A stretch of DNA of 64,000 bases, taken from assembly GCA_963575745.1 (NCBI GenBank), contig CAUYUJ010000336.1, forward strand, positions 124,001-188,000. The letters are read 5' to 3'. The stretch is from Prorocentrum cordatum (Eukaryota). Made by a program: the position numbers and the translations under genes. Under the pieces are notes generated by a model, which searched no databases, was not told where the DNA came from, and was given only the letters and a program-made list of their open reading frames with translations. Position 1 is the stretch's first letter. Every line of letters begins with the position of its first letter. Of this stretch, positions 2,191 through 60,090 are shown piece by piece.

Positions 2191-2197
2191 CCTTGGC

Positions 2198-21552: not shown

Positions 21553-21603
<51 letters not shown>

Positions 21604-24600: not shown

Positions 24601-27600
24601 GGAAGGGCGCGCCCCTCCCCGACGTGGAAAAAAGAGGGTTGGAAGGGGCAACTTTCTAGACCACCCACCACCTACGCCCGGAGGCCTGATTGGATTACGC
24701 TTTTGCCTTCGCACCGCGCATGTTTGTTTTATTCGTGCGCAGCCGCTATAAAAATTGAGGGCGGCTTCTTGTGAAAGTGGGGTTCGTTCGCCTGGGGCTG
24801 CCCCAGGGCGCATGGCCAAGCGCGTAATTCTTACAGCAGCTGCACCATGAGGTCCCTCTTTTTCTGGTGAGTAACGAATTTATGTAGACTTTTCTAAATG
24901 CCAGATTCGCCGCTCGAAAGATGCAGGGCTGTTCTTTTACACGTCGGAAGCCCCGCCTAAATGATCGTCCGGGCGGGCGCAAGTGTTCCAACATGTGTTT
25001 CTAGTGAAGAGGAAGAAGTGGCATCATTGATGCATCTTGGGTTATGTCTGGCCTTCCTCCCTCTTCTCCCGCCCCACTTCCTTCTCCTTTTCCTCTCCTT
25101 GCTCGTCCCTCCTTTTTTTTGTCGGTATCCGTCTTGTCTTGTCGTCGCATCTAAAGTGCTTCGCCCTCTGCCACCGGCCATCCTCATATTGCTTGCGCGG
25201 CCACGTTCTAGGCCTCTTAGATGGGGTCCGAGCATGTGGGGTCGGTGGAATGGAATGCCCCGCATCGCCGATGCATCGCCGATGCGCTGGCGACGCATTC
25301 GCCGCATTGAGGCGCATGGGCGATGCATCAGCAATGCATCATCGATACATGCTCGATGCGCCGAATGCAAGAGTGCCCTGCGTGGAACGATGCCCGTGCT
25401 ATGGGATGGCCGGCCATTCGCATTATTACGAGCCTGCGCCATTCGTTCCGTCTTCGCTTGCGCCCCATTTCTCTGTTGTCTTGAGTTCCCAGTCCTCCAC
25501 TGTTCGCGCGCTGGTATTGTGACGTGGTTTTTGTTTCCCACTGTCCTCAAACGATCGGGGCCATTCCTCTGTTGCTGGGCTTCGCTGTCTCGTGATCAAT
25601 AGTTTTTTCCCCCAACGTTTGTGCCCCCCTCCCCCTCTCCCCCCTGTTCCGCCGATGATTTTGCAGAACTACAGACAAGGCTTGTTGGCGTTGCCTCTTC
25701 CGGTTCCCTGCTGATGCGTCCTCATTCTCGCCTTCCTTCCTGACCTTCGACCCGTCTCGACGTGCCATCAGCGAATGCATCGACATCTCGATCCCCTTGC
25801 TTCCGACGAGGCAGCCACCTGTAGAGCGACGGCCTAGAACGTTCTGCCTTTTCTGATTCGCGACACCAATTTCGCGGGCCCGCGTTCGTGTTGCGAGGGC
25901 GATCGTTGCCGCGCGAGCGAGAGCGCATGTATTTCACGAAGGGCCGTGGCTCTGGGGGGAGATGGCTCAAGTTGTAGCACCGCGCATCAGCAAGGGCCTG
26001 TAACGTCATCGTGGTGCCTATGCTCTGGTTGCGAGGATTCAGGAGATTGCGTTAGTGGCTCTCGCACTGGGGGCGCGGTTTCACGCGCAATTTTAGAATT
26101 GGGGCTTCGTTTGGGGATCAGAAGTTTCAGATCAGCGCTGTGGATCGCGGCCCTCGGAAAGGGCTATCATACTACCCGACGCAGAGTCGACATCGGGGCA
26201 GCACATTCGCGAAACAGTAGCGCGGCAGCTCGCATGGGGCCCCCTGAAGCGGGGTGGCGGATAATGCGGTTCTCCCCGCTCCAGTTTGCAATTCGGCGGC
26301 GCGCGAATGGGAGTGGCGCGAAGGGGGGCCCTCCCAGGAAACATGGGGTTGTGGAAGCCACCTTGCCTTCAACGCGTATTCTCGGTCGCCTGTGATCCCT
26401 TCAAAGAAGACCGCTGCTGTTAGAATGCCGCCCCCTGTGCCCCGCGCCTTCTCGTGCGCAGCCGATGAACGTTGCGGGCCGTTTGGCTCGAGAGGCCTGC
26501 CGTCGAATCTGCCGCGGCATCAAGGCTCGTGGGTCCGACGCTTGGTGGTCCGTGGCCATGTGGCCGAGGCCCGTGCTGCGCGGCCCCTGGCCTCGTGGCT
26601 CTTCGCAGCTGTTCGGGGTATCTGGGCACGGTGCAGTCTGCGTGGTGGCCCTTGTCCCCGTGGCTTCTCGTGGCTGTGCCAGGCCAACGAAGTCAGATCC
26701 CCCTTGCACTGCGCGGCAGGCGCATCGAGTTCCGCACTTGCTCCAGCGCCAAAAACTTCTTTGAGTTCTGACAAGGCTGTAACTATCTCCGAGGCAAAGA
26801 ACAAGTTGGAGGTCGAGAGGGCCAAATTTATGATCTCCGTCTATATGTCTGTTTTCACATTGGGTGATCCAGAGATGAAGCGGTTTGCTCCCACGATGGG
26901 CATGGCTGCTACACCGTTGGCCGAGGCGCACAACACTTGCACGAAAGAGCTGGCAACCCAGAAGGGGGCTGTACGTTATCACGCACGGATGGCAAGCAGG
27001 GCATTTCTGACAGAGTACCTGCAGGATGTCGCACAACTTTTAGGTGACACGCGGAAGTTGGAGCTAATTGGAATCATTATGTGCCTTTCCCCGGCCGGCT
27101 TCGCTCCGATGTCTATCAAGCAGGAGCAGCTTTTGTGTGACACAATGATCGGGCTGATTCGGGGAGTGTTCACGGTCGAGTGGGTGCACATGCAGAGCTA
27201 CGCGCAGCGCCCGCCACTTTTTTTTTGCTGGCTTGTGCAGCTGCGATGGCACGGCAAGGAGGCATGCTTGACCCATTTCTACGACATTTCTGCCGCCCTG
27301 GAAGAGGCCGAACTGTATGCCGCGGGCCCTGGAGCCGACCGCGCCAAAAAGTTCGCGCGCGAGTTCTTAGGTAATCTCTTCTGGCCACGCTCTACCTGGG
27401 TCCGGGAGGTACTAGTGGCGCCTGACGAGTGCGAGTTCAAGAGGGTGCCCGAATACATACGCAATGACATTGAGCTAGTTTTCAAGTCGCATGGGACGTC
27501 CAGGGTCGTGGAGCTGGCGTTCAATGACTTGACGCTTCCTTCCAAGGGGGGTGCGGGAACGTGTCGTAGATCGCGGTGGTCTCACTGTCTATCGGGGCTC

Positions 27601-27899
27601 GCTCTGTCTTATTGTTTGTCTATTGGGGTGATTCCTGGCGCCGGGCGGGCGCCCTTCATCGAGGGGGGTTCGATCGTTTTCACTTGGCGATGCCACCCCG
27701 GCCCCCGTCTTCAGCAACCCGCTTTAGTTGTTCGCTGTTGAGTGATGTCCCACAGCTTCGCGTAACCCACCAGCCCATCCAGAAACGATGCCGACGCGAG
27801 TTGCCCTAAGCAGAGATGTGGAGGAACATGCAAAGGAATGGGAGGCTGGGGAGGACGCCCCACCCCAAGAAGGGGGAGTATGGAGGTGGATTCGGAGGA

Positions 27900-28291
27900 G
27901 CAAGAAGAGGAGGAGGAGGACGAGGAGAAGGTGGACGAGGAGGAGGAGGACGACGAACATGAGGAAAAGCAGGGGGAGGAGGGAGAAGGAGGAGGAGGAG
28001 GAGGAGAAGGAGGAGGAGGAGGAGGACGATGAATGACAGGATCATGAGGAGGCGGATGATGACGATGACGATGACGACGATGATGACGATGATGATGACG
28101 ATGGTGATGATGATGATGATGGTGATGATAACGGTGATGATGGTGATGTTGATGGTGCTGATGATGGTGATGCGGATGATGATGGCGATGATGATGATGA
28201 TTATGATGGTGGTGATGCTGATGATGATGCTGATAATAATAGTAACACTAATGATAATGATGTTACCCATGGTGGTGATGATGATGATGGC

Positions 28292-28327
<36 letters not shown>
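27900..28327. repeat. (GAG)n then (GAT)n microsatellite; counterpart at ~40250-40725
   Basis: Direct reading. Confidence 0.9.
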
Positions 28328-28328
<1 letters not shown>

Positions 28329-28329
28329 A

Positions 28330-28615
28330 ACCCGAGTAAGCGATTAAGGAACCCCCCCCCTCTCCGGTGAAAGGATAACGCACCCGGCACCCGGAAGCGT
28401 TATCCTGGCACCAGGAGGGGGTACACCAGATCACACGGGTCCCATTACAATTCTAATTGGGATGCCACCCGAGGCGGGGCGCTGGAATTATTCATTTTCC
28501 TTCCATTTGCGCGGTGCTAATAATATCGCTCGGCGAAAACCCCCCCAAATAATTATTTAATTACGGCGCGGTGCTAATGATAACGCCGGGGGGTTCCTTA
28601 ATTGCTTCTCCGGGT
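28330..28615. mobile_element. 286-bp MITE with TA TSD (Tc1/mariner-type), present only in duplicate copy 1
   Basis: TA|acccgagtaagcgattaaggaacccccc ... gggggttccttaattgcttctccgggt|TA; empty site gatgat-ta-tgatggtg near 40660. Confidence 0.9.
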
Positions 28616-28638
28616 TATGATGGTGGTGATGATGATGG

Positions 28639-28687
<49 letters not shown>

Positions 28688-31600
28688 CAGCATCACCATG
28701 ATGATGCTGATGATGAGGAGGGGGGTAGGGGGATGAGGGGAGGGAAAACGAGGGCGATGAGGGGGCTGCCGACATGTATCAGGGGTCTCTTGGCATAGCC
28801 CCTGTGGCCTTTTGGGGCGTATTGAGTGCCGTTGAGGGGTTTTGGGTGAGTCTTTCAGGAGCCTCGGGAACGCCGGGGAGGCTTTTTCGGGGCCACCTGG
28901 GGCTTCCTGTTGGGGCACTCTTGGGGGCCTCGGGGGCCGTCTCGGGGCTATAGAACGGTCAAGCGAGAGGGCGTAGCGCACTAGGGCCCCCCCCGCAGGA
29001 GGCCAGCATGTGACCCATGCTTTAATCAAATCAGCGGTGTCATCGGGGCTGTTATGGGGGCTTCTGGGGGCGCCTTGGGCATTTGGGGTGCATCTTGCTG
29101 GCCTTTTTGGGGCCTCCTGGGCGGCCGCCTTGGGGCGCCCTCGGGGGCAATCTTTAAATCATCCTGGAGGTGATCGATCAAAGGAGGAGCGTTTCTTGAT
29201 GAGCCCCCCCCCGCAGGAGGCCAACGTGTGGCCAAACCCGTGTGTAAACTCAATGTGTTTGGCCTTTTCGCCGAGGCTTCCTGGGATGTTAGTCTTGAGT
29301 ACCCCTCGGGGGGCCTCTTTGGGCGTTTCGGGGGTCTCCGGGGGGCCTTTGAGGGGCACCTTGGCCCTTGTGGGGCTTCTTGGGCACCTCGTGAGGCCGC
29401 CTCGGGGTTCCTTGGGCGATTCGGAGGCCATCTTCGGCCATCGTGAAGGAGGTCGATCAAGGGGGGGGGCCCTAGATAGGCCAACGTGCTGCCAAAACCT
29501 TAGTAACATCAGTAATGACGGCTTTTTCGCCGAGGTCGTTTCGGACGCTCCGACGACCCCGCCGCCCCACCCACCCCCGCCCCTCCAGATCCAGGAGCGA
29601 GGGGGGGGGGTAAGGGAGGGGTGAACCCTTCCCGAAAGGAAAAGGGGGGACTGGACGAGAGAACTCGCTAAACCAGACACGCCGTCAGGGGCTGGCGAGG
29701 TTCCCCAGGTCGTCGCATTCGCTGGAGCTCGTCTCGTTCGCAGATGTTCGATGTCATGTTCTGGGGGCTGGCGCGGGGGGTCCTCTTGTTTTGGGCCGCC
29801 GACAGATCAAACGACGGCTCCAGTTTTGTCCACGACGACTCGGACCGAAAACGCATCAACAAAGCCGAGATTGTCTCTGCGAGTGCAAAATCTGGGCCCC
29901 GCATCAATAACGAGTTGTTCGACGCGAAGAAGCATGCGTTCTCTTTGGGCGAGTCGGTACTTGAGGATATCCAGAAGAGCAAGGAGACATTGGGGGCGAC
30001 TGCTTATGCGAATCCAGGCATGGCAACAAGTGTGGTGGCAATCATTCCAATCACCAGCACCTAAGTGTTAACTCGCCCCAGCGAAGAGTTCGGGGCAAGT
30101 TGCTGCCGTTCGCCTGCCGCGAGCTGGCGCGCAATGGGCCCCCGGGCAGACTGTGGCCCGAGTTTTTTTTTGCCGCGGTCGGGAATCGAAGGGGGCCTGC
30201 CGGGGGTTCCGCCGCGCAGCGGTCTGGGAGTAATCAAGTTAATCCTAGGGCGGGGCATCAGGGGCGGAGATGGGGGCGGGGTGTGAGGCGCGTCAAATTC
30301 TGCGTTCCTGTGAGGTTGTTTGCTCTCCCACCAGCGCAATTTCGCTTCGCTTCCAAACCATTTCTCGTCGCTGTTGTGCGTTCCAGGGACGGTGATATGG
30401 CACGCGGATGCACGGCCAATTCCAGAGAATTGGTGGTACGTCATGGGAGCGATTGTAATGGGCGCCGTGGTAGTCCGAATCCGCGACGCAGGCCGCACAT
30501 CATAGACATACATCCGAATGGCTCACTTGCACGGGCCAGACCTGGTCGCGAAACAAATGTGCATCAAAAGCCTGACTGGAAGGACAAGGCATTATAGGCT
30601 CCCGCTACGGACCAACGAGGAGGACTTTGTTACAGACCGCTGCGCGCGAGGGATTCCCAAACTGGACTAAGGAGCTGGGGCTGTGATTTGTGTGCATCCA
30701 CCGCCGAAGGGCCCGATGTTTCAAAGCTTCGGCAGACGCTGGGCATGGATGTTGCCGGGCCCCTGGGGCCCCGCGCATATCCTTATCGGCGGCCTTCTTG
30801 TGCCTTGGGACGCCGACCCCAGGCGGCGGACGCGCAATAATCCGCGCCCCGTGAAGGAGCAGTTTGATTTGCTGTTCGGTTTTTTGGAGATAATGTTTGA
30901 ATCCCGCTGGCCATCCCTGATATGCGACACTCTTTATGCTCTGATCAACCACTCCTTGCCGTCGTTGGACGACGCCGCTGTCTAGGCGATCGTGAACAAG
31001 CGGGGCGGGTGCAAAACGCTGCATTTTGCTTAGACGCTGGGCGCGTGGACGCACTGTTCGAAGGGCTGCGAACATCAAAAACCAAAATGCAACCAAGAAC
31101 CTAGACGCGCCTAAAACAAAGGCGAAGGCGAAGGCGTTGGCTCGGAAGCCTTTGCCCATCAAGCCGGACGTCGAGCATTCAGGGGCTGGTGCCTGGGCGC
31201 TTCATGTCAAGGTCGATCGCCGTTCCTATTTCCGTTCTGTCGCCCGCCATCTCGAACGCATGGGTTGCATGCGTTGCGGTTCGGAGCCTGTGTTCGGACG
31301 CGCTTGCAGGCCCCTGGAACGGGGGCCAGCGGATGCGAGTTAGCAGCGGAGCGCTTATCTTCCAAAGGTCCCTGGGTGCACAATATCAGTCGAACGCGAG
31401 TGGGACCACCGGGTCAAAGTGCAATGCCCTACGGGCGAGCCTCCGTTTAGCGCTTTGAAGAGTGTATCGGGCACGTTTACGTTGTTGCACGCCGTGAGAT
31501 TATGTTTGCGGTGGGCGTCGAGCAAACACCACCTGCCATGCCCTTGGGTGCTGGATGATTGACGTTTGCGTCAATTCGACTTTGCGCGGGTAGGGGCGCA

Positions 31601-33879
31601 AAGTTTCTCGCGCGCGCTCGCGTTTCTCGGCCGGCCTCTGGCGCCGCGAGATTTGACTTGGCGCGCGGCCGCCGCGCTGCATGCCTTCTGTTCCCGGTTG
31701 AGTTTCCATGGGTTTTCAGCCGCCGTGCAACGCCAGCGTCATTGCGACGCTTTCCATCTCGATATCCGATGAGTGGGCCGCGGTCGAGTGTCCGGGCCTT
31801 TATCGTGCATATTGCGCGGAACCAGGGCTTAATGCGCACATTTCTAGTGGAGGGAGCTCTCACTTTGAGATTATGCCGCGAGAGGGCCGCCCGCGCTGAA
31901 CTCGGCTCTTTCCCGCGCGTTGTCGAAGGATGTTGGTCGCGCTTTTGGTTTTTATTGTTTTCATTATCTGCTGATTACCTGCGCGGGGACCGGGGAGTCT
32001 TGATTCCGGCATCCAAGGTAAGTTCGTGCACTTGGCCTCCAATCGAGGACGATGGGCGCCCAGTGTGCGCCTGTGCGCCTCTACTGGGCTCCTGGCAGTT
32101 TCTGGGTCTCTGTCAAAGTTTGCGCGCGTTTGGGGCCCATTCTGACGGGCGCAGTCAGAGCGCGCCGCGAGCGAAGTGATGCCCGCGCGGCGTCGCGCAG
32201 GGGAGTCGCAAAGGGACCCGGGGAGATTTGCATGCGTTCCTTTACTCGATCATGCGCCGATGGTGCCGCCCAGTTCTTGCGCGGCAGTATTGCCTTAATA
32301 TTTAGTTCCCCCCCTGCCGCTCTTGTGGTTCAGAGTGAGATGGTTCTTCTGGGCTGCGCGGTTAGCCCCGAGTCTTTCGCCGCCGCCTCTTCGATGATAT
32401 TTCGGAGGCTCGCGCTGAGTTTTGCGGGCGCGACGCGTCTGTCGGCCCCGCGCCGAACGCGGGGGGGTCGATATTTTCGCGACAGAGCATGAGAAGATAC
32501 CGGTCTGAAGATGCAGCAATGTTGCGATGCTTCTTCTCGCCGCTCCAGGAAGTTCGCTCCGCTGGTTAGTCTACGCGGCGCCTCTCGCGATAAGTTCGAC
32601 TCCGGCATCTTCGCCGCGGGGCCCCGGGGCCGCGACGCGCCCGGCCCTCGCAGGAAAAATCAGGCCTGTGTTCTTGGCATCTGCAGTCTGGGCTCGGTTA
32701 CCCGACGGACGTCGCGACGGCGCGAGGAATGTTTGGACGGCGAAGCAGAGTTCGGGGCCAGTTGCTGCTCTGTCTGGTGCCGACCTGGGCCCGCGCTGTG
32801 AGCCTCGCCAAGTTGGCGGATAGCTTCTCCCAGGGCGCGATCCTCTCCGCGTCTCTGCCATCAATGTTCTGCGCCATATCACCTCTTGCGCGCGCGAGTG
32901 CTGTTCGGCCTCCACATTTGCGCCGAGCGACCTCCGCTCTGGGACGGGGGGCCCTTGGAAAGGCGGGGCAACACTTCCTTCCCACCTTTGCTGGGAGGCC
33001 GATCGATGGCTTTACACGGATGATCAAGACGCTCTGTTCATTGCGGCATGGGCGCCGTGCCTGTCAAGATCAAAAACCCTTCGAAGCACCTGAGGTGTGA
33101 CAGAACATTCAGGGCACAAGGGATGCCTGAGGGAGTTGGGAACAAGGCGCCCTGACCAGAGACAGCGCAGGAGAACGCGCTGACCACAGAGAGAGAACTA
33201 ACAATCGCAGAGCTGGCACTCGATGGCCCGCCCGCACTGGACAGGCTCGTGGCGCGCTCTTCGCAACCGTTCTCGCTTCTTTCTTCCTTCAGAAAGACGG
33301 AAGGCAAATGGGTCGCGGGGCGGCCGGCCGTCCCTGTTGGAAACACGACGAAGGTTTGCCTGGGCAGCCTCGCTGTGCACAGCAAGCAACCTACGCAGGC
33401 TGGCCCAATTTGGGCGGTCGATCGACCCTGTCAAACCATGTTGTTCAAGAGTTGGGGCTGGCCAACTAGCTCAAACGCATATTCCTCACTACCGACGGCG
33501 ACGCGGGCCCGGCGGCGGGCGTCCGGATGACACTTTATCCACAAGACCTCCGCCCGACCATAACGACGATCAAATGCCGACCAGATCCGAGACCACAGGT
33601 CGAGCATCGGACTGGCGGCGACAAGATGATCTCGCGGCAGCCGAACTGCTCTGACAAAGTGTAGATCGTCTGAAGAGCACAGTCCGCAAGCCGTCGTGTG
33701 GCCATCCAGCTGCGGGGATTAGGCTTGCTGGTCCCTGCTCCAGTTCCAATCGCCAGTCTCCCATGTTATAACCCAAATCGGTTTGCCTACTGCAATCGGT
33801 TGGAACCCGCCCGAAGAGAGGATGCCCCCCCCCCCCCCCCCCCCCCCGCACCACGCACACACACGCAGACACACACACG

Positions 33880-33911
<32 letters not shown>

Positions 33912-36698
33912 AACACACACACACACAAACAAACACACGCACACGCACACGCATCTGCACGCACATACCACACATACACACACGCACACGCACACTCTCT
34001 CCGCCCGGAGGCCGCGATTGTCAGCAAGTTCGACATGCAGCGCGAGCCGTCAGAATTCGACAGGTGGCTATTCGGTCTGCTGTGCAGCAACACCCGATAC
34101 TGGTACTCGGGCGAGACCAGACCCTGCCACTGCTAGCAGTGAGGATTTGGTAGATGAAGCTATCACCGCCGACCCCGAAGGCGCATTCTTCACTTGTGGA
34201 GCCCCGCCCAGAGCCAACCTACGGGCGCCCTGATCCCCCGCGAGACATCACCTGGGATTGGGGCCCATCCGCGCTCGCAACGCGACGGTGGGCATTCGGG
34301 GCCCGGGTGGCTCGGGGGGGAGGCGCGCCGCCGACAGGTCGGCGCAGCGCGGGCGGTGGACTGCGCGCCTCGGGGAACAAGGTGGTCTTGAGTAGCAGAT
34401 GGAAGGCGGCGCGTGGAAGTCTTTGTGCTGTTGGGCAGCCCAGTCCAGGAGATGAGCCGCCCGCATTCCCCATGGCGATCTACCGTGCACATGGCGGTTC
34501 ATGGCGCCCCCCAGTCTCGGCGCAGGGGAGAGACCGTTAACATCGCCAAAACAGAAGCATCATCCACGCGCCAAGTATCGCACGTCCTTCGATCACTTTT
34601 CTGGCCAGCACGCTCGAAAAATTATCGCGCGCAGCGGCGCCGCCCGCGGCCGGCGCCCTTCATTCCGACTCTCCCCGGTCCCGTTTTTCTTACTTTTCTC
34701 CCCTCCTCCTCCTCTCTCTTCCTCCTCCTCCCTCCCCGCCTATTCCCCCGTGTCTTTAATTTTCCTCTTTATATATGACCTGTCCTGCCGCAGCCCCCGA
34801 CGGGTTGGTGGGGCTGGCCGGACTCGCGTTGATTGCGCACTCATCCCGCATGGCCATGAAGTTTGACGTTTGCAGCAGTCATCGGGCCGACGGAGGCTCA
34901 TTTTCGAAATTGAGGCATCTCTTTAGCGCCGCGCGTGATCGTTTTGGTTTCGCGCAACAGTTACGCGCACGGAGGGCGGTTGTGAACGTGAAGCTCTCGC
35001 ATTACCGCCGCTCGCATTCGTCTCGACAGTTTGCAGCAGTTGCGGAAATGGATGGTGGCCCCATTTCAAAATTCTTGAGCCCCCCCCTGGGGCCCTTCGG
35101 AGCATCCAGAATCCCCCCTGAGCAGGCAACGGGCCCAGTTCGGCGGCTGAGACGGGCGGCTTCCACGCGGACCAGGGCGGTGGCAACCTGGCCGGAGACC
35201 CTCTTGGGGAGAGGCCCGCTGTACCGAACGCGAGCAACGGGGCGGGGTTCAGTGACGCACGGGACGCCGAGGACAGAGCCCGGCCTCGCCCCTTCGGAGG
35301 GCAACCGGCAGGCCTTGGCGGCGACGCCCACGTGCAGGAAGGAGCTGCCGCCCCCCCCCCAGCGCGAGTGGGAAGGACACTTCCCCCGCAGGATGCTACG
35401 CAAGTTTTGCGGCTGTTGGCTGCTTCCCCACGCCCGCCCCCCGCCCGCCCCCTTGCCCCCGCCCCCCGCGCCCCCCCGCCAAAAGACTCCAGTTCTGCGC
35501 GACTGTTAGTCGTTTTACTGGCCCTCCCCGACCCGTCCCCCCCCAGGCGGCCGGCGCGCGGCTGACTCCCAGCCGGGGGGTGCCCGGGCCCGCCCATCGC
35601 GTCGCCGTGGCCCGCCGCCCCCCGTCGCTCCCCGCCTCCGCTGGCACGCGCACGCCCCGGTCCGCGGCGTGCCCCCCGGCGCCCCCGCGCCGTCGCCCTC
35701 GACCGACTGAGTGCCGGCAGTTCCACCTGGGAGCTATCGATCTTTCCAGGCCGCGCCGTTCGCTCTGAGGGTTGCCGCGCCGACGGGGCGCGCTTTGGCT
35801 GGTGGGCGCCTTCCGGAACATTGGGTTTAGCGTTCCCTCTACGTCTGGCGATCCTCCCGCGCGTGAGCTGAGAGACGGCTTGCAGCGCCGCGCTCTGCCG
35901 CCCACGATGGTTCGCCAGCCTGGCTGTAGACCCCCGCTGCGACGTTCGCTCGCCGTTTCGCTTCATCATGGTCGACGAGTACATGCACGACGTCTGACGT
36001 TGGGTCCATTATCTGGATTTGGTCACGCTCCAATTCATTCACCATGTTGGTGTGCATCGAGGCCCTCCTCCTGGTCCTCCTTGGGTTGGCGTGAACTTCC
36101 TGTTCTTCTGCGTCGTTTCAGCCGCCTGAGTGGCAGCGTAGCCCGCTCCTGTCGCTTAGGGCCTAATTTAGCCCGCTGCTCGGTCGCTGCGCGTTCCTGG
36201 ACGGCGCGCGGCTGGACCGCGTCGCTCGCGAAAGAACAGTTTTCCTCCGCAAGATCAAAGTACCCCCGCCAGCCCAGTCAGAAACGATGCCCAGGCGAGT
36301 TGCCTTGATCAGGAAAGCGGAGGGGTGTGCAGTGGCCTACTGGGGCGTTTTGGGAGCCTCTTGGCGGTCCCGGGCGCCTCTGTAATTTCTTGAGTGCCCG
36401 CTTTGGCGCCTCTCCTTTTGGGGCGTTCTTTGGAGCCTTGGGGCGCTCTTGGAGCCATCTTGGAATATCGATCAAACAAAGGGGGGGGGGGGGGGGGTGA
36501 AGTAGCTTTGCTCCTGTAGAGTGCCTAATTTCGTCTCTTGGACCCCTGTTGGGGCTCCCCTGGGCGTTCTTGGGGCTGCCTTGGAGGCCCCCCGGGCCTT
36601 TCTTGGGGCCCTCTGGGGCCATCTTGAAGCGAGCAGGCGAGAAGGTAAAAGACATTGATTGTCACTCGTTTTTGGAAAGTTTTTTATATGTAAATGTG

Positions 36699-36741
<43 letters not shown>

Positions 36742-39700
36742 GCCTCCAGAGGAAACTCCGTGGCCATGCGGGGCCGTCTTGGAGCGTTCGCGGGGCCTCT
36801 TGGAACAATTTGAAAGCCATTTTTTACATTCTGACTATCTTAAGCTATCCTGAAGGTCATCTCGGGCTCCACTGAGGTCTTATTGCCACCGTCGTGGGCG
36901 AGGCTGACAAGTACCTTCTGACACCTCGCGGGGCGCCCCCGTCCAGATCCAGGGGAGGAGGTAGTGGGAAGGGCACGCCCCTCCCCGACGTGGAAAAAGA
37001 GGGTTGGAAGGGACAACTTTTTAGACCGCCCGCCACCTTCGCCCGGAGGCCTGATTGGATTACGCATTTGCCTTCGCACCGCACATGTTTGTTTTATTCG
37101 TGCGCAGCCGCTCTAAAAATTGAGGGCGGCTTCTTGTGAAAGCGGGGTTTGTTCGCCTGAGGCTGCCTCAGGGCGCATGGCCAAGCGCGTAATTCTTACA
37201 GCAGCTGCACCATGAAGTCCCTCTTGTTCTGGTGAGAAACGATTGAATGTAGACTTTTCTAAATGCCATATTCGCCGCTCGAAAGATGCAGGGCTGTTCT
37301 TTTACACATCGGAACTCCCGCCTAAATGATCGCCCGGGCGGGCGCAAGTGTTCCAACATGTGTTTCTAGTGAAGAGGAAGAAGTGGCATCATTGATGCAT
37401 CCTGGGTTCTTCCTGGCCTTCCTCCCTCTTCTCCCGCCCCGCTCCATTATCCTTTTCCTCTCCTTGCTCGTCCCGCCCTTTTTTTCGATATCCGTATTGT
37501 CTTGTCGTCGTATCTAAAGTGCTTCGCCCTCTGCCACCGGCCATCCTCATATTGCTTGCGCGGCCGCGTTCTAGGCCTCCTAGATGGGGTCCGAGTAGGT
37601 GGGGTCGGTGGAATGCCCCGCATCGCCGATGCATCGCCGATGCGCTGGCGACGCGCTCGCCGCATTGAGGCGCATGGGCGATGCATCAGCAATGCATCAT
37701 CGATACATGCTCGATGCGCCGAATGCAAGAGTGCCCTGCGTGGAACGATGCCCGTTCTATGGGATGGCCGGCCATTCGCATTATCACGAGCCTGCGCCAT
37801 TCGTTCCGTTTTCGCTTGCGCCCCATTTCTCTTTGTTGTCTTGAGTTCCCAGTCCTTCACTGTTCGCGCACTGGTATTGTGACGTGGTTTTTGTTTCCCA
37901 CTGTCCACAAACGATCGGGGCCATTCCTCTGTTGCTGGGCTTCGCTGTCTCGTGATCAATAGATTGCTTCCCCGACGTTTGTGCCCCCCTCCCCCTCTTC
38001 CCCCTGTTCCGCCGATGATTTTGCAGAACTACAGACAAGGCTTGTTGGCGTTGCCTCTTCCGGTTTCCTGCTGATGCGTCCTCATTCTCGCCTTCCTTCT
38101 CGACCTTCGACCCGTCTCGACGTGCCATCAGTGAATGCATCAACATATCGATCCCCTTGCTTCCGACGAGGCAGCCACCTGTAGAGCGACGGCCTAGAAC
38201 GCTCTGCCTTGTCTGATTCGCGACACCAATTTCGCGGGCCCGCGTTCGTGTTGCGAGGGCGATCGTTGCCGCGCGAGCGAGATTGCATGTATTTTACGAA
38301 GGGCCGTGGCTCTGGGGGGAGATGGCTCAAGTTGTAGCACCGCGCATCAGCAAGGGCCTATAACGTCATCGTGGTGCCTATGCTCTGGCTGCGAGGATTC
38401 AGGAGATTGCGTTAGTGGCTCTCGCACTGGGGGCGCGGTTTCACGCGCAATTTTAGAATTGGGGCTTCGTGTGGGGATGAGAAGTTTCAGATCAGCGCTG
38501 TGGATCGCGGCCCTCGGAAAAGGGCTATCATATTACCCGGCGCAGAGTCGACATCGGGGCAGCGCATTCGCGAAACAGTAGTGCGGCAGCTCGCATGGGG
38601 CCCCCTGAAGCGGGGTGGCGGATAATACTGTTCTCCCCGCTCCAGTTTGCAATTCGGCGGCGCGCGAATGGGAGCGGCGCGAAGGGGGGCCCTCCCAGGA
38701 AACATGGGGTTGTGGAAGCCACCTTGCCTTCAACGCGTATTCTAGGTCGCTTGCGATCCCTTCAAAGAAGACCGCTGCTTTTAGAATGCCGCCCCCTGTG
38801 CCCCACGCCTTCTCGTGCGCAGCCGATGAACGTTGCGGGCCGTCTGGCTCGAGAGGCCTGCCGTCGAATCTGCCACGGCATCAAGGCTCGTGGGCCCGAC
38901 GCTCGGTGGTCCGTGGCCTTGTGGCCGAGGCCCGTGCTGTGCGGTCCGTGGCCCCGTGGCTCTTCGTAGCTGTTCGGGGTATCTGGGCACGGCCCTTGTC
39001 CCCGTGGCTTCTCGCGGCTGTGCCAGGCCCAACGAAGTCAGATCCCCCTTGCACTGCGCGGCAGGCGCATCGAGTTCCGCACTTGCTCCAGCGCCAACAC
39101 CTTCTTTGAGTTCTGACAAGGCTGTAACTATCTACGAGGCAAAGAAAAAGTTGGAGGTCGAGAGGGCCAAATTTATGATATCCGTCTATATGTTTGTTTT
39201 CACATTGGGTGATCCAGAGATGAAGCGGGTTGCTCTCATGATGGGCATGGCTGCCACACCGTTGGCCGAGGCGCACAACACTTGCACGAAAGAGCTGGCA
39301 ACCCAGATGGGGGCTGTACATTATCACGCACGGATGGTAAGCAGGGCATTTCTGACAGAGTACTTGCAGGATGTCGTACAGCTTTTAGGTGACACGCGGA
39401 AGTTGGAGCTACTTGGAATCAGTATGTGCCTTTCCCCGGCCGGCCTCGCTCCGATGTCTATCAAGCAGGAGCAGCTTTTGTGTGACACAATGATCGGGCT
39501 GATTCGGGGAGTGTTCACGCTCGAGTGGGTGCACATGCAGAGCTACGCGCAGCGCCCGCCACTCCTTTTTTGCTGGCTTGTGCAGCTGCGATGGTACGGC
39601 AAGGAGGCATGCTTGACCCATTTCTACGACATTTTTGCCGCCCTGGAAGAGGCCGAACTGTATGCCGCGGGCCTGGAGCCGACCGCGCCAAAAAGCTCGC

Positions 39701-42700
39701 GCGCGAGTTCTTAGGTAATCTCCTCTGGCCACGCTCTACGTGGGTCCGGGAGGTATTAGTGGCGCCTGACGAGTGCGAGTTCAAGAGGGTGCCCGAAAAC
39801 ATACGCAATGACATTGAGCTAGTTTTCAAATCGCATGGGACGTCCAGGGTCGTGGAACTGGCGTTCAATGACTTGACGCTTCCTTCCAAGGGGGGTGCGG
39901 GAACGTGTCGTAGATCGCGGTGGTCTCACTGTCTATTGGGGCTCGCTCTGTCTTATTGTTTGTCTATTGGGGTGATTCCTGGCGCCGGACGGGCGCCCTT
40001 CATCGAGGGGGGTTCGATCGTGTTCACTTGGCGATGCCGCCCCAGCCCCCGTCTTCAGCAACCCGCTTTAGTTGTTCGCTGTTGAGTGATGTCCCACAGC
40101 TTCGCGTAACCCACCAGCCCATCAAGAAGCGATGCCGACGCGAGCTGCCCTAAGCAGAGATGTGGAGGAGCATGCAAAGGAATGGGAGGCTGGGGAGGAC
40201 GCCCCACCCCAAGAATGGGGAGTATGGAGGTGGATTCGGAGGAGCAAGAAGAGGGGGAGGAGGACGAGGAGGAGGTGGATGAGGAGGAGGAGGACGAGGA
40301 GCATTGGGAAAAGCAGGGGGAGGAGGGAGAAGGAGGAGGAGGAGGAGGAGGAAAAGGAGGAGGAGGAGGAGGACGATGAATGACAGGATCATGAGGAGGC
40401 GGATGATGACGATGACGATGATGACGATGATGACGATGATGATGACGATGGTGATGATGATGATGATGATGATGCTGATGGTGATGATGATGGTGGTGAT
40501 GGTGATGTTGATGGTGCTGATGATGGTGATGATGATGATGGCGATGGTGATGATGATGATTATGATGGTGGTGATGCTGATGTTGATGCTGATAATAATA
40601 ACAATAATGATAATGATGTTACCCATGGTGGTGATGATGATGGCGATGATGATGATGATTATGATGGTGTTGATGATGCTGATGGTGATGATGATCAGCA
40701 TCACCATGATGATGCTGATGATGAGGAGGGGGGTAGGGGGAGGAGGAGAGGGAAAACGAGGGCGATGAGGGGGCTGCCGACATGTATCAGGGGTCTCTTG
40801 GCATAGCCCCTGTGGCCTTTTGGGGCGTATTGAGTGCCGTTGAGGGGTTTTGCGGGAGTCTTTCAGGAGCCTCGGGAACGCCGGGGAGGTTTTTTCGGGG
40901 CCACCTGGGGCTTCCTGTTGGGACACTCTTGGGTGCCTCGGGGGCCGTCTTGGGGCTATTGAGCGGTCAAGCGAGAGGGCGTAGCGCACTAGGGCCCCCC
41001 CCGCAGGAGGCCAGCCTGTGACCCATGCTTTAATCAAATCAGCGGTGTCATCGGGGCTGTTATGGGGGTTTCTGGGGGCGCCTTGGGCATTTGGGGGGCA
41101 TCTTGCTGGCCTTCTTGGGGCCTCCTGGGCGGCCGCCTTGGGGCGCCCTCGGGGGCAATCTTTAGATCATCTTAGAGGCGATCGATCAAAGGAGGGGCGG
41201 TTCTTGATGAGCCCCCCCCCGCAGGAGGCCAACGCGTGGCCAAACCCGTGTGTAAACTCAATGTGTTTGGCCTTCTCGCCGAGGCTTCCTGGGATGTTAG
41301 TCTTGAGTACCCCTCGGGGGGCCTCTTTGGGCGTTTCGGGTGTCTCCGGGGGGCCTTTGAGGGGCACCTTGGGGCCCTTGTGGGGCTTCTTGGGCACCTC
41401 TTGAGGCCGCCTCGGGGTTCCTTAGGCGATTCGGAGGCCATCTTCGGCCATCGTGAAGGAGGTCGATCAACGGGGGGGGCCCTAGATAGGCCAGCGTGCT
41501 GCCAAAACCATAGTAACATCAGTAATGGCGGCCTTTTTCGCCGAGGTCGTTTCGGACGCTCCGACGACCCCGCCGCCCCACCCACCCCCGCCCCTCCAGA
41601 TTCAGGAGCGAGGGGGGGGGGGTAAGGGAGGGGTAAATCCTTCCCGAAAGGAAAGGGGGGGCTGGACGAGAAAACTCGCTAAACCAGACACGCCGTCAGG
41701 GGCTGGCGAGGTTCCCCAGGTCGTCGCATTCGCTGGAGCTCGTCTCGTTCGCAGATGTTCGATGTCATGTTCTGGGGGCTGGCGCGGGGGGTTCTCTTGT
41801 TTTGGGCCGCCGACAGATCAAACGACGGCTCCAGTTCTGTCCACGACGACTAGGACCGAAAACCCATCAACAAAGCCGAGCTTGTCTCTGCGAGTGCGAA
41901 ATCTGGGCCCCGCATCAATAACGAGTTGTTCGACGCGAAGAAGCATGCGTTCTCTTTGGGCGAGTCGGTACTTGAGGATATCCAGAAGAGCAAGGAGACA
42001 TTGGGGGCGACTGCTTATGCGAATCCAGGCATGGAACAGGTGTGGTGGCAATCTTTCCAATCACCAGCACCTTTGTGTTAACTCGCCCCAGCGAGGAGTT
42101 TGGGGCACGTTGCTGCCGTTCGCCTGCCGCGAGCTGGCGCGCAATGGGCCCCCGGGCAGACTGTGGCCCGAGCTTTCTTTTGCCGCGGTCGGGAATCGAA
42201 GGGGGCCTGCCGGGGGTCCCGCCGCGCAGCGGTCTGGGAGTAATCCAGTTAATCCGAGGGCGGGGCATCAGGGGCGGAGTTGGGGGCGGGGTGTGAGGCG
42301 CGTCAAATTCTGCGTTCCTGTGAGGTTGTTTGCTCTCCCACCAGCGCAATTTCGCTTCGGTTCCAAACCATTTCTTGTCGCTGTTGTGCGTTCCAGGGAC
42401 GGTGATATGGCACGCGGATGCACGGCCAATTCCAGAGAACTGGTGGTACGTTATGGGAGCTATTGTAATGGGCGCCGTGGTAGTCCGAATCCGCGACGCA
42501 GGCCGCACATCATAGACATACATCCGAATGGCTCACTTGCACGGGCCAGACCTGGTCGCGAAACAACTTTGCATCAAAAGTTCAAAAGCCTGACTGGAAG
42601 GACAAGGCATTATAGGCTCCCGCTACGGACCAACGAGGAGGAGTTTGTTACAGACCGCTGCGCGCGAGGGATTCCCAAACTGGACTAAGGAGCTGGGGCT

Positions 42701-43619
42701 GTGATTTGTGTGCATCCACCGCCGAAGGGCCCGATGTTTCAAAGCTTCGGCAGACGCTGGGCATGGATGTTTCCGGGCCCTTGGGGCCTCACGCATATCC
42801 TTATCGGCAGCCTTCTTGTGCCTTGGGACGCCGACCCCAGGCGGCGGACGCGCAATAATCCGCGCCCCGTGAAGGAGCAGTGCGATTTGCTATTCGGTTT
42901 TTTGGCGAATGTTTGGAGCCCACTGGCCATCCCTGGTATGCGACATTCTCTGTGCTTTGATCAAACACTCCTTGCCGTCGTGGGACGACGCCGCTGTCTA
43001 GGCGATCGTGAAAAAGCGGGGCGGGGGCAAAACGCTGCATTTTGCTTAGACGCTGGATACGTAGACGCACTGTTCAAAGGGCGGCGAACATCAAACACCA
43101 AAAGGCAACCAAGAACTTAGACGCGCCTAAAACAAAGGCGAAGGCGAAGGCTTTGGCTCGGAAGTTTTTGCGCATCAAGCCGGACGTCGAGTATTCAGGG
43201 GCTGGTGCCTGGACGCTTCATGTCAATGTCGATCGCCGTTCCTATTTCCGTTTTGTCGCCCGCCATTTGGAACGCATGGGTTACATGCGTTGCGGTTCGG
43301 AGCCTGTGTTCGGACGTGCTTGCAGGTCCCTGGAAAAAGGGGGGGCCAGCGGATACGAGTGAGCAGCGGAGCGCTTATCTTCCAAAGGTCCCTGGGTGCT
43401 TAATATCAGTCGAACGCGAGTGGGACCACCGGGTCAAAGTGCAATACCCTACGGACGAGCTTCCGTGTAGCGCTTTGAAGAGTGTATCGGGCACGTTTAC
43501 GTTTTTGCACGCCGTGAGATTATGTTTGCAGTGGGCGTGGAGCAAGCACCACCTGCCATGCCCTTGGGTGCTGGATGATTGACGTTTGCGTCAATTCGAC
43601 TTTGCGCGGGTAGGGGCGC
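31601..43619 (+). repeat. Segmental tandem duplication, copy 2 (~12.0 kb)
   Basis: Colinear with 19196-31599, with scattered substitutions and indels. Confidence 0.97.
38450..43582 (+). pseudogene. Decayed transposase-like gene, copy 2
   Basis: Paralog of 26090-31562 with an extra frameshift near 39670. Ends REWDHRVKVQYP...HAVRLCLQWAWSKHHLPCPWVLDD*. Confidence 0.6.
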
Positions 43620-44569
43620 GCCTGCGCTCGGGGTGTATTCGGCATCCTGTCGCGCTGGGGGCGCGGCGCGCGTGGGTGCGCATGCATGTTTGCGAATGTG
43701 TGTTCCTTTTATTTCAGCGCCGTTGTTGCCGCGGCGGGGCCGATTGCGAGCTCGTCATCGTTGCTCCGAAGTGCGTCGGGGGAGGCCCGCCCGATGCAAC
43801 TTGATGCAAACGCATCGTTCCTAGTTGTCGACGCGCGCTGGATCGCGCTCGCAGGGTTTGTTTTGCGATCTACGCACGCACTCTTCCCTGAGTTTCTCAT
43901 TCCCGCCCCCCGCGTTGATGGTTTTCTCCGCCTCTGCCTCCCCCGTGCCCCCCCCTGTGCCTCTCCATCTTCTTCGGTGTTGTTTTCGTCGCCCCCCCTC
44001 CCTTCCGCCTTCCTCGCTCTCGCACCCTCTTGCCCTCCCATTCGCTCCCCCGCCCTTCCGAATCCATCCCGCGAAGTTTGCCGGATCTCGTCGAGCCGTC
44101 GGGCGGGCTGCCAGGGAGAAGCCCGCCACTTGCCCCGCGCCCTCCCCGCGCCTCGAATTCCCAAAGGGCGCAAACAATGTTCGGGGGGCATTCTCTGAGG
44201 GCCTTCGGCCGCCGCCGCCAGCCCCGTCGACACATGTCTTGCCCGGGCCCCTCTTCCGTTATCATCCGTATCCTTTTTGCTCTTGTCTCGCTTCTCGTCG
44301 TCCTGTTCGGTGTTCCTGGGGATTATTAGGGCGGCCTGTGACACGCGCGGGCCACCCTTGTGGACCGTACCGAGGCGCCTTTGGGCGTGATTGGCTGTTG
44401 TGGTTCCGTGACTTTGATGCTCAATTACTTCGAGGTTGGTTCGGTGCCGTTGTGGGGCCGCGCAAGGTACCGGGATATTTTGATACCTTGAAGTGGGCCC
44501 GCAGTTCGTTTGCAGCACTGTTAGGCTTCTTGTGGCCGCCGCAGCCATCCCAATGGATAACGTATTGCG

Positions 44570-44840
44570 GCGTGTATGTTTGTTTGTATGTATGTATGCG
44601 TACATGTGTGCATGTATGCACGTAACTGTGTGCGTGCATGTTTGCATGTCTGTCTGTATGCCTGTCTGTTTGTCTGCCAGCTGGTCTGTCTGTATGTATG
44701 TTTGTATGAATACGGGTTCATGCACTTATGTATGTTGCATGCATGCATGCATGTATGTATGTACGTATGTATGTATGTATGTGTGTATGTATGTACGTAT
44801 ACACACGTATAGTTACACGGTGCATATACATATACGAATA
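44570..44840. repeat. (TATG/TGCA/TCTG)n tetramer satellite inside the transposon
   Basis: Direct reading. Confidence 0.85.
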
Positions 44841-46825
44841 TCTGCACATGAGGGTGAGGCTTCTACATTGCAGCATCGCGGCGGAGGGGTCGAACGCGCG
44901 TCGCGCACAATGAAAGATCCCAGCCTTCGGTGCGAGGGCCGATCGGCATTTTACGCAGGATTGTTGCCCTGGGAGCTATGGCCCGGCGTCTCGGGCAATG
45001 GTGGCCGCAGTCGGCCCGTGGCGCCCCGCAGAGCAGCTGCGGGAACAACGTGTCGAGATACGGCCTGTGCGCAAAGCATTCGGGCTGCAGGATCAAGGAG
45101 GCACGCTTTTCAGCTCATGGTTGACACGAGCCTTGCATCGAGGCAGGCGCGCGTGCGCCTCAAGGACAGGCGCTGCACCAAAGCAGGCTGGCGTGGAGGA
45201 TTTAGCCATGGCATCGGCATACTTGGTCGTCTGCGGGCGAACGATCTGGCCTACCACTTGGTCCGCGCATTGCCAATGTATCGATGATGCATCGTTGATG
45301 CATCGCCCATGCGCCGCAATGCGCTGAGCGCAGCGCTGGCGCATCGACGATGTATCGGCGATACGAGGCATTCCACCGGCCCCATCTACTCCGACCCCAT
45401 CTAGGAGGCCTCTACACGCTTGGTTGGCAGATTGGCTGGTTTCTTGACGGTTAGCTGGCTGGCAGTTCGGCTGAGTTGCTCGTTGCCTAAACTGACATTT
45501 GGTAATTGGTTCGGGCCGCTTGCTGGAGGATGTTGGCTTCGGGGGCGCGCGCCCCCAGCTATGTACAAAGACTCGTGGCCTCGAGCCCCGAACCGAGTTT
45601 TCAGGAAACAGCGGGGAAAGCGACAAGCGCACCCAAACGCGATTTCTCTGCTCTGGACTGGGGTTGGCGCGTTCAGGCTGCCTCCGTGGGGTGGGCCCGT
45701 TGCCTCGGAAGCGCCAGCGCGTAGCAAGTTACAAGGAATCGTCGCTTCAACAGTGGAAGTCGACAATAGAACATCACTAACTGTATGTTGGGAGCCTGAC
45801 CCATACGATTGTCGGTACACAGTGTTTACAATGTATTATCTTCTCTTCCCTGCCTCCTCCTCCCCCCATCTCCTCTTGTTGCCGATGCTGCTGCCAGTCC
45901 TCCTCCTGCTCCTTCTCCTCCTCCTCCTCCTCCTCTCCCTCCTCCTCCTCTTCCTCCTCCTCTTCATCCTCCCCCTCCTCCTCCTCTTCCTCCTCCTTCA
46001 TCTCCTCCTCCATCCCCTCATCCCCCTCCGCCTGCCCCTCCCCTCCACCTCCACATCCCTCCCTCCCCCACCCCTCTGCATCTCCCTCAGGCTGCCTCCG
46101 CCGCTCCCCTTCTCGCTCCCAGGCGCAGGCGGCTCCTGCGCGCCGCACCGCAAGCCGCTGGCGCCGCCGCCCGCGGCATGAAGAAGCTGGCTCGGGAGGA
46201 GAGCGGCGACGGGAGCGGAGGGGGGCGGGAGGCTGAGGGAGCAAAAGCGGGAGGAGGGGTGGGCAGAACGAGGTTGACGGCGGTGAGGAGGAGGCGGAGG
46301 AGGAGGAGGAGGAGGTGCAGGAGGAGGAGGAGGAGGGGCGGCAGAAGGAGCGTCGACAGGAGGAGGGTTTGGAGGAGGTTCAAGACGAGGGGCAGCTGCG
46401 CCTCGCAGGCGCGCAGCATGGAACCCGCTGACAAGGGCTCCATGAAGAGGACTGATTGCCGCCAGAAGGGCGCTAGCCCTACGGCCCCGAATGACCGCGA
46501 GGTGGTCTCGACGCGCCGGCGCACATGCAACTGCGACGCCAGGGCGCGTGCCGAGCCGCCCTCGGGCGCCGAGCAGGACGACCGCGAGACCGAGCCCGAC
46601 CACCCGAAGTCCCACGGCCCCGGCAGCAGGCACGGCGCGCAGTGTGGCCGCCAGCCAGACGGTCCCCTGCCGCCTCCGCCGGAGCGGCAGGGCGGCCCAC
46701 GTGGGCCGCCCGCGGGCGCCGCTCACGCTGATGCGGTGCGGTGCACCGCGCCGCGCCAGGCTGCCAAGGTTCCGTGCATTTGCGCGCCAGGGCGAGGGCG
46801 CGTTCTCTCTTTCTCTCTCTCTCTC

Positions 46826-47959: not shown

Positions 47960-48372
47960 CCTTTTCCGCCTGAGACCCTCGCAACTATGGGTTCCGAGAA
48001 GCCCTGATCAGGTGGTCAGGCCACTCCTGCCTGAGACATCCTCGCAACTTTGGGTTCCGAGACGCCCTGGGCTGAGGTGGTCAGACCACTCTCGCCAGAG
48101 ACATCCTCGCAACTCTGACGTCAGAGATCTCTTGCCCCATGGTGGTCAGGCCACTTTCGCCTAAGACATCCTCGCAACTCAGACCTCGGAGGTGTCCTGC
48201 CCCGTGGCCCATGGTGGTCTGGTCACCTCGACCAGCGACATCCTCGCCACTCTGGTTTCCAAGATGCCCTGCCCCATGGTGGTCCTGCCACGCTTGCCCG
48301 AGACATCCTCGCAACTCTGGGTTGCGAAATGCCCCGAGCTCAGGTGGTCAGGCCACTATCGCCTGCGACATC
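47960..48372. repeat. ~65-70-bp tandem repeat (ggtggtcaggccact...gagacatcctcgcaact...)
   Basis: About six diverged units, conserved along their whole length. Confidence 0.8.
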
Positions 48373-56283: not shown

Positions 56284-56432
56284 GAGGGCGCCGCCCCCCG
56301 TTCGGTGTGAGGGGGATCGCGGCCCGTGGCACGCAGCAGCGCGGCAGCAGCGGGGGACGACAGAAGCGGCATCGGCAGCAAATACAGCCCGTGCCCCCCT
56401 CCCCTCCTTTCAGAACCCGGAGTCCCACTCTG

Positions 56433-56590
56433 GGTCTCCCAGATGGGGTCCGAGTAGGTGGGGTCGGAGGATCGCGCCGCATCGGCGATGCGTCGGGGAT
56501 GCAGCTCGATGTGAAGTCCGATAATCTCCACGGCGACGTCGCCGATGCGAAGAGACCCGCCACCGTGCTAGCGCAGCATCGGCATGCATG
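56433..56590 (+). mobile_element. Orphan left TIR related to the 7.8-kb transposon
   Basis: ggtctcccagatggggtccgagtaggtggggtcgg matches 33 of the first 35 nt at 37574, followed by gcatcg/cgatgc repeats. Confidence 0.75.
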
Positions 56591-59027: not shown

Positions 59028-60090
59028 GCGGTTGCGGTTGCGCGCGCCCGTGGCCGGGCTGTAACGTGTCGTTTGGTTGCGGTTGCGGCTGCGCGGCCAG
59101 GTTGAAATGTGTCGCCTGGCTGCGGGTGGTTGCGCGGGCGGGTTGATTTGTGTCGCCTAGTTGCGTTTGCGGTTTCGCGCGCGGGCGGGTTGATATGTGT
59201 CGCTTGGTTGCGGTTGCGGTTGCGGTTGCGCGCGCATGCGGGTTGAAATGTGTCGTTTGGTTGCGGTTGCGCTTGCGGGTTGATTTGTGTCGCCTGGTTG
59301 CGGTTGCGTTTGCGGTTGCGCGGGCGGGTTGAAATGTGTCGGTTGGTTGCGGTTGCGGTTGCGGTTGCGCGCGCGGTTTGATTGTGTCGCTGAGATGCGG
59401 TTGCGGTTGCGCGCGCGGCCGGGTGAAAATGTGTCGTTTAGTTGCGGTTGCGGTTGCGGCTGAACGGGCGGGTTGACATGTGTCGTTTGTTGGCGGTTGG
59501 GGTTGCGTTTGCGCGGGCGGGATGAAATTGTTCGCCTGGTTGCGGTTTCGGTTTCGCGGGCAGTGGGGATGAAATGTGTCGCCTGGTTGCGGTTGCGCGG
59601 CCAGGTTGACATGTGTCGTTTGGTTGCGGTTGCGGTTTCGGTTGCGCGAACGAGTTGATTTGTGTCGCCTGGTTGCGGTTGCAGTTGCGGTTGCGCGGGC
59701 GGGTCGAAATGTGTCGTTTGGTTGCGGGCGGTTGCGCGGGCGGGTCGAATGCCTCGCTCAGTAACGGTTGCAGTTGCGGTTGCGCGCGGTCGGGTTCACA
59801 TGGTTCGCTTGGTTGCGGTTGCGGTTGCGCGGCCAGGATGAAATGTGTCGCTTGGTTGCGGTTGCGGTTGCGGATGCGCGGGCGGGTTGAGATGTGTCCC
59901 CTGGCTGCGGTTGCGGTTGCGGTTCCGCGGGCAAGTTGGATTGTGTCGTTTGGTTGCGGTTGCGGTTGCGGTTGTGCGGGCGGGTTGATTTGTGTCGTTT
60001 GGTTGCGGTTGCGGTTGCGGTTGCGCGGGCGGGTTGAATTGTGTCGCTTGGTTGCGGTTGCGCGTTCCCGCGGGCGAGTTGAAATGTGTT
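59028..60090. repeat. ~40-55-bp satellite: (ggttgc)n plus gcgggcgggttgaaatgtgtcg
   Basis: About 20 units with variable hexamer number. Confidence 0.9.

Follow-up and report, generated by a model that had tools for sequence, protein, structure and literature searches.

A decayed transposon of Prorocentrum cordatum from a lineage with five-base target site duplications and a candidate hAT-like transposase

Transposons of the hAT superfamily have the terminal consensus YARNG, Transib elements make 5-bp target site duplications (TSDs) and end in CAC...GTG, and MuDR has two genes; the hAT5 group is reportedly due to Kapitonov and Jurka (2007), to judge from a paper that cites them. The available text of PMC12730594 describes hAT5, hAT6 and hAT7, so that TSD length varies within hAT, and places hAT5 inside the animal Blackjack lineage by sequence similarity. 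The accessible parts of PMC5225508, PMC7780238 and PMC4763223 deal with the roles of the C/DxxH motif and the conserved tryptophan. In Hermes the tryptophan of the RW motif is W319. The locus compared with these systems lies in a window of 64,000 nucleotides from the dinoflagellate Prorocentrum cordatum (GenBank assembly GCA_963575745.1, contig CAUYUJ010000336.1, positions 124,001 to 188,000 of the forward strand), in which positions 37570-45414 are a 7,845-bp decayed copy of a transposon that has terminal inverted repeats (TIRs), a real element that is dead, old and shortened. It is very likely a decayed copy from a cut-and-paste lineage with a 5-bp TSD, the intact members of which encode an accessory protein and a transposase of about 1,490 residues that is predicted to be Hermes-like. 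The best reading of this lineage is a deeply divergent, apparently unnamed, recently active, two-gene hAT-like branch. Membership in hAT is not established: motifs and fold agree with it, whereas TSD, termini, gene number and sequence similarity do not.

The TSD is 5 bp in the family that shares the ends of the window element. These ends have about 1,900-4,400 candidate matches (1,936-4,421) in the 4.1-Gb genome, mostly miniature inverted-repeat transposable elements (MITEs) of 200-256 bp. The 30 best matches to a 256-bp MITE with the window element's ends were taken as a sample of young MITEs, of which 29 are full-length and two (L104 and L105) are a single duplicated insertion. TCTA...TCTA is present in 22 of the 29; outside it, the 5-bp duplication is exact in 24 and has at most one mismatch in 27, and an exact duplication at 6-10 bp occurs in none. 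The duplicated 5-mers vary, and the TSDs observed share no target sequence. Comparison of the flanks of 33 insertions with fetched loci yielded paralogous empty sites for seven; for four MITE insertions the flanks overlap by exactly 5 bases in 13/13 empty-site rows, and TCTA is absent. Because the empty sites lack TCTA and a distinct 5-mer is duplicated outside it, TCTA is element DNA. The original prediction was right that TCTA adjoins GGCC at either end of the element, but it took TCTA for the target duplication and set the ends at 37574 and 45410; the correct ends are 37570 and 45414, with TCTA belonging to the element. TCTA as TSD was rejected together with the alternative then offered, AGG...CCT ends with a 2-bp CT duplication, since unrelated insertions duplicate different 5-mers outside the same ends. 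The tabulation of TSDs of TIR-flanked copies that had been suggested gives a short TSD of 5 bp.

With these ends, the window element consists of the following parts.

37565-37569, + strand: left TSD copy CGCGT, decayed, its length taken from the family
37570-37722, + strand: left TIR, beginning 5'-TCTAGGCC, with GCATCG/CGATGC subterminal repeats (inverted-pair and MITE comparison)
37723-39045, + strand: 1.3 kb where intact relatives have the accessory open reading frame (ORF), exon 1 and the D/DxxH/RW region; no profile match, presumed internal deletion
39046-39935, + strand: transposase remnant over profile columns 318-614 (profile E 8.5e-26 and 6e-22), with one frameshift near 39670; it holds the helical insertion domain and, at codon 39855-39857, the catalytic E
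39936-41829, + strand: 1.9-kb gene interruption, either an intron or an insertion of later date, in which there are GAT/GAG microsatellites and fragments of dispersed repeats and across which the profile passes from column 614 to column 615
41830-43579, + strand: C-terminal part of the transposase remnant, columns 615-1009, with stops, frameshifts and the final CPW family motif (profile match)
45262-45414, - strand: right TIR, ending GGCCTCTA-3' (reverse complement TAGAGGCC; inverted-pair and MITE comparison)
45415-45419, + strand: right TSD copy CACGC (flank comparison)

The TIR pair and its subterminal gcatcg/cgatgc repeats, both foreseen from the letters, are borne out: the inverted pair 37573-37722/45262-45411 (150 nt, 86% complementary) is the first listed of 1,867 inverted pairs in the window, and the two 153-nt arms contain six and three copies of GCATCG/CGATGC, a density 20- to 40-fold above that of the window (background 1.2 per kb in the element interior and 0.95 per kb in the window). 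The first 29 nt of the left TIR are identical to the start of the young 256-bp MITE and 35 nt of the right end are identical to its end; the left TIR matches the MITE over 75 nt, and the window TIRs pair with each other over 150 nt, with right and left ends mismatched at positions 2-3. The TSD of the window element has decayed to CGCGT on the left and CACGC on the right, with CACGT to the left of a tandem duplicate described below; the length of 5 bp given to it is that of the family copies. At 56429-56520 the window also has the degenerate end of a MITE that belongs to this TIR family (85% across 74 nt). Three old MITEs (L189, L195 and L212) have a common left-flank motif, CCCGRCCTAAY, and differing right flanks, which suggests a nested or recombined arrangement.

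The decayed ORF in this element was predicted to be a hAT-like transposase with a long C-terminal extension, and the family profile confirms both the remnant and the extension. The element covers profile columns ~317-1009 only, in order, so that it keeps the C-terminal ~690 of ~1,490 transposase residues. TSRVVELAFNDL is at 39840 (27496 in the tandem duplicate), and the predicted C-terminal catalytic E is the E of VVELAFN, the conserved catalytic-E motif of the aligned family. A profile search of the window element gave no match to core columns 1-316, exon 1 or the profiles of the accessory ORF (ORF1), and because columns 1-316 and exon 1 are undetected, both aspartates, DxxH and RW are missing from this copy, in which the catalytic E is kept. 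RGFSW, formerly read as the RW motif of hAT, was rejected as such: its R and W are not adjacent, it stands 13 codons ahead of the first aligned profile column (the family RW is 38 columns ahead), and it is found at 26659 in the tandem duplicate only, the window element reading RGFSR. The window element is therefore non-autonomous and likely internally deleted, and it could likely move only in trans. Parts of the interruption at 39936-41829 match other loci at 66-78%. A dispersed repeat (~72% identity) at 40099-40442 recurs in other loci, among them the interior of family C, one of the related families, and the C16726 transposase at its 3' end.

The frames of the window match longer ORFs elsewhere in the genome at 22-28% identity, and one of these as query has at least 57 genomic matches and matches 1,568 public protein clusters at E<=0.001. 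These clusters have no Pfam name and most matches are unnamed metagenome proteins; the only ones with a name attached are from dinoflagellates, as unnamed products labelled Prorocentrum cordatum and, in one source, also Polarella glacialis. In an alignment of 96 proteins, where denominators are rows with the residue present and the remaining rows are mostly gaps, the second D is conserved in 85/85, the D and H of DxxH in 87/88 and 89/89, the R and W of RW in 92/94 and 91/94, and the catalytic E in 90/92; the first D, on a separate exon, is aligned in 9/9 exon-1 sequences. In the full-length model protein of 1,488 residues these motifs stand at ~343, 543, 567-570, 679-680 and 1018, a spacing (D-D 200, RW-E about 339 residues) wider than that of hAT. 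The transposase gene is interrupted at one same place, ~30 codons past the first D, in families that are 10-32% identical, which from the alignments is probably an ancestral intron. An exon-1 homology search found nothing, and since the word-based search is insensitive this blank is no evidence.

The original proposal that the element fits no named superfamily is right for the lineage so far as Pfam goes. A Pfam scan of the window frames and relatives gave no family match, with 16/16 family proteins blank, and an ordinary hAT of the same genome scored 2e-11 as a control. The family profile did not match the ordinary hATs of the genome (hhalign probability 3.7 and 0.1), PDB sequence searches with family proteins found nothing significant, and plasmid tblastn gave no match. 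No Pfam match to zf-BED was found in the three proteins with an N-terminus, a domain for which the control hAT likewise gave none. At one locus (G000:C21020), an ordinary hAT ORF with CxxH, RW and Dimer_Tnp_hAT (L181:4433-8167) is followed by a 478-aa ORF of undefined kind (9477-10910 of L181+L182).

Intact relatives carry D-D-DxxH-RW-E. Of 41 transposase loci examined, 20, which belong to six families, could be delimited at both ends from alignments of their copies, after removal of a few overshooting bases; the remaining 21 are single, truncated or extend beyond the fetched stretch, and an automated TIR/TSD scan of single-copy loci gave low-scoring candidates only, which are excluded from the counts. 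The 20 delimited elements are 9.2-20.1 kb long, and their 5-bp TSD is exact in 19 and has a single mismatch in the remaining one. A FastTree tree built from 127 sequences sets the window protein near family A with weak support (0.75), and because the six families are scattered over this tree at 10-32% identity, the 5-bp TSD characterizes the lineage. The left end begins 5'-TC in 7/7 families, the window's included, and right ends are TA, AA or GA (AG in one copy), so that end position 2 is mismatched in 6/7 families, again including the window's; the related families end in tetramers other than TCTA. The constant C at left-end position 2, where most right ends have A or T, likely reflects an asymmetric reading of the ends.

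Family A comprises eight full copies of 10.7 kb that are >99% identical, which implies recent activity. It has the subterminal ATGGGGTC...GTAGATGGGG motif of the window element, with the outermost 14 bases different. For the young MITEs with the window ends, the genome search did not find a mobilizing enzyme, and family A is the nearest candidate. Upstream of the transposase is ORF1, of ~400 residues, which has homologous versions in families A, C, D, G and I, aligns weakly to an ORF of family H, and as a profile matches five further element types; it gave no Pfam, Atlas or database match, a blank that is no evidence because the word-based search is insensitive. ORF1 is most likely a putative transposition cofactor. 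In the C3537 element a 424-aa ORF with a C2H2-like N-terminus (L046:336-1607), possibly a third gene or cargo, separates ORF1 from the transposase. Beside family D there is a 1,017-aa ORF on the minus strand (L052/L053, G000:C21322:26948-29998), named by eye as non-LTR reverse-transcriptase-like.

The AlphaFold model of the exon-2 protein has a pLDDT of 89 and is helical between the second D and E. Among 48,161 chains compared by VIA-align, the best match is Hermes (8edg), with Z 8.9 and an rmsd of 4.7 over 308 aligned residues at 8% identity, model 33-613 being superposed on Hermes 216-609; the next row (Z 6.5) is unrelated. This moderate predicted match agrees with the conserved motifs, and the structure prediction once suggested as a check for a DDE fold with DxxH gives a Hermes-like top match to a protein family in which DxxH is conserved. 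Structures of the P element, Transib, RAG1 and IS256 are absent from the best 50 VIA-align rows, which is not an exclusion. The model of the N-terminal half has low confidence and no clear fold match. In the C-terminal extension, a Tudor/KOW-like barrel at 688-817 and an AP2/dsRBD-like domain at 950-1030 (Z 4-6) are tentative assignments from the model.

Like hATs and Hermes, the intact relatives are predicted to combine a DDE centre and helical insertion domain with C/DxxH and with RW ahead of the insertion, and as in hATs the TIRs are imperfect with subterminal repeats and there are non-autonomous MITE derivatives. The lineage differs from hAT in its TSD of 5 bp rather than the canonical 8 bp, in its second gene (ORF1) as opposed to a single transposase gene, in the lack of a Dimer_Tnp_hAT Pfam match and the candidate Tudor/KOW-like and AP2/dsRBD-like C-terminal domains, and in left ends that are TC rather than YARNG, a consensus to which right ends conform in no families but family A and the window's. 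With Transib it shares the 5-bp TSD and the helical insertion domain, but its ends are TC...A rather than CAC...GTG. Kolobok and piggyBac differ from it in that its TSDs are varied 5-mers with no fixed TTAA-type tetranucleotide, and its empty sites lack TCTA. Its transposase of ~1,490 residues compares with 612 residues for Hermes in the available part of PMC10368747, and where it has DxxH and RW, Transib and EnSpm have C(2)C and H(3-4)H in that of PMC12730594. C/DxxH and a conserved W are shared with MULE/MuDR and IS256 according to the accessible portions of PMC5225508 and PMC7780238; in contrast to the 8-9-bp TSD described there for Muta1, the TSD is 5 bp, and no MULE Pfam match was found. 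Long TIRs are a further common feature, and MuDR, like this lineage, has two genes. Neither the 29 young MITEs nor the 20 elements have an exact TSD of 6-10 bp, so that the 8-10-bp TSD of MULEs was not encountered. The closest parallel in TSD length is hAT5, with 5 bp and a hAT-type enzyme; the lineage differs in having no detectable similarity to hATs, hAT5 being compared by its description in the available text of PMC12730594 only. Because hAT5, hAT6 and hAT7 are described there, a short TSD alone does not exclude hAT. A literature search, with Repbase, most subscription papers and supplements outside its reach, found no description of the lineage, and the available part of PMC12130899 contains nothing on it.

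By analogy with Hermes, Kat1 and Muta1 (PMC10368747, PMC4763223, PMC5225508 and PMC7780238, in their accessible parts), the transposase would attach to the element at the G-rich subterminal motif and at the GCATCG repeats and pair the two ends. The DDE centre would cut with help from the histidine of DxxH and the tryptophan of RW, and hairpins would probably be left on the DNA to either side, in the manner of Hermes and Kat1. The ends would then be joined to target strands 5 bases apart, without a fixed target sequence. After landing, the window element and 6 kb of its flank were tandemly duplicated.

Several results weigh against assigning the window element to such a lineage. Ends were placed for only 20 of the 41 transposase loci; the TSD pair of the window element has two mismatches (one if the flank of the duplicate is used); no empty site for its insertion was found among paralogous loci; and a genome search for an autonomous element with its exact ends returned only the tandem duplicate. 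For two transposase-bearing elements the empty-site overlap is 5 in 5/9 rows and 4 or 7 in the others (67-86% identity), and one further insertion has a poor overlap of 10. Old MITEs have an exact 5-bp TSD in 3/22 and at most one mismatch in 8/22, against 1.7% in a mismatched-pair control; older TIR-bounded copies have at most one mismatch in only 2/16, and TIR relatives of ~700 bp, with both ends present in 1/16, are too decayed for use. One 201-bp MITE (L187, G000:C14749:1038183-1038383) has an exact 8-bp repeat, TCACAGGA, the sole case among the 22 old copies. As for the fold, VIA-align's own note rates a Z of 8.9 as moderate for a model that is largely helical, Foldseek with the exon-2 model gave no match at E<=0.001, the exon-2 model is without the first-D exon, and in the N-terminal-half model the first-D region has a pLDDT <50. 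Three old MITEs (L189, L195 and L212) have a common left-flank motif, CCCGRCCTAAY, and differing right flanks, which suggests a nested or recombined arrangement.

A superfamily of its own, beside hAT and not inside it, in the hAT/MULE/P (C/DxxH) group is possible for the lineage though on balance improbable. Pfam, PDB and the genome's own hATs provide no sequence link to hAT; the 5-bp TSD and left-end TC are constant across families 10-32% identical; the accessory gene, N-terminal domain and C-terminal domains are the lineage's own; and non-convergence in PSI-BLAST is a Repbase criterion for a superfamily (PMC4455052, available text). However, adjacent RW and the Hermes-like predicted fold point to hAT, the TSD length of hAT itself ranges over 5-8 bp, and dinoflagellate-type proteins may have diverged fast. 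Membership of an already catalogued group, most simply hAT5 or else a Repbase dinoflagellate family, is rather unlikely: hAT5 with its 5-bp TSD is described in the accessible part of PMC12730594, Hermes is the top fold match, and among the listed ESM Atlas rows the weakest, at 0.78, is for a cluster of Dimer_Tnp_hAT, but the same source puts hAT5 within the animal Blackjack lineage by sequence, the 16 Pfam-blank proteins contrast with the control hAT at 2e-11, which the family profile does not match either, and the motif spacing is wider, with a second gene besides.

It is very doubtful that the transposase fragment is cargo captured between two MITE ends. The abundance of MITEs with the window ends (1,936-4,421 candidates) would allow it, as would the failure to find a close autonomous relative in the genome, but in orientation and placement the fragment agrees with the intact relatives, the tree puts it, with weak support (0.75), beside family A, which has the same subterminal motif in its TIRs, the TIRs of the window element pair over 150 nt against the 75-nt MITE match, and this TIR pair has a decayed 5-bp TSD around it. 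GGCC...GGCC ends with a TCTA duplication, or AGG...CCT ends with a CT duplication, can practically be dismissed, since TCTA, which flanks GGCC on both sides and is present at both ends of 22/29 young MITEs, is absent from empty sites, a separate 5-mer is duplicated outside it, and other tetramers end related families.

The window element thus reads best as a decayed copy from a hAT-like lineage with a 5-bp TSD, and it lies partly within a tandem segmental duplication.

19196-43619, + strand: 12.4-kb tandem segmental duplication, units 19196-31599 and 31601-43619 (self-comparison)
25207-31599, + strand: 3'-truncated duplicate of the element in the upstream unit, with the left 5-mer CACGT at 25202-25206 (self-comparison)

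Both units include the 6 kb of flank that lies upstream of the element, the upstream unit ends before the right TIR, and their divergence is 4.75% substitutions in the flank and 3.6-4.0% in the element. The upstream copy as an independent insertion was rejected, the 6-kb flank being duplicated too, without the right TIR; the original prediction had treated the two copies as separate witnesses, and the upstream one is a tandem segmental duplicate. The window also has tandem repeat arrays at 7157-8292, 47967-48372, 59028-60092 and 60726-61231, with units of ~300, 65, 49 and 60 bp.

Much of the repeat DNA of giant dinoflagellate-type genomes is unclassified. Simple diagnostics (5-bp TSD, 5'-TC left end, DxxH/RW/E) make this lineage classifiable, and it takes in no fewer than 57 transposase matches in one genome, thousands of MITE candidates there and 1,568 public clusters without a Pfam name. 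It may, more tentatively, represent an undescribed, recently active, two-gene DDE superfamily that is sister to hAT, with a 5-bp TSD, TC...A tips, an accessory protein and Tudor-like and AP2-like C-terminal domains; if so, it would drive thousands of MITEs in dinoflagellate genomes, and its C-terminal domains would be chromatin- or DNA-reading. With the near-identical intact copies of family A one could test whether a partner protein is required by a Hermes-type core, and what causes a 5-bp rather than an 8-bp stagger. Dinoflagellates are hard to transform, and an active native transposon could serve as a tool for gene transfer into them.

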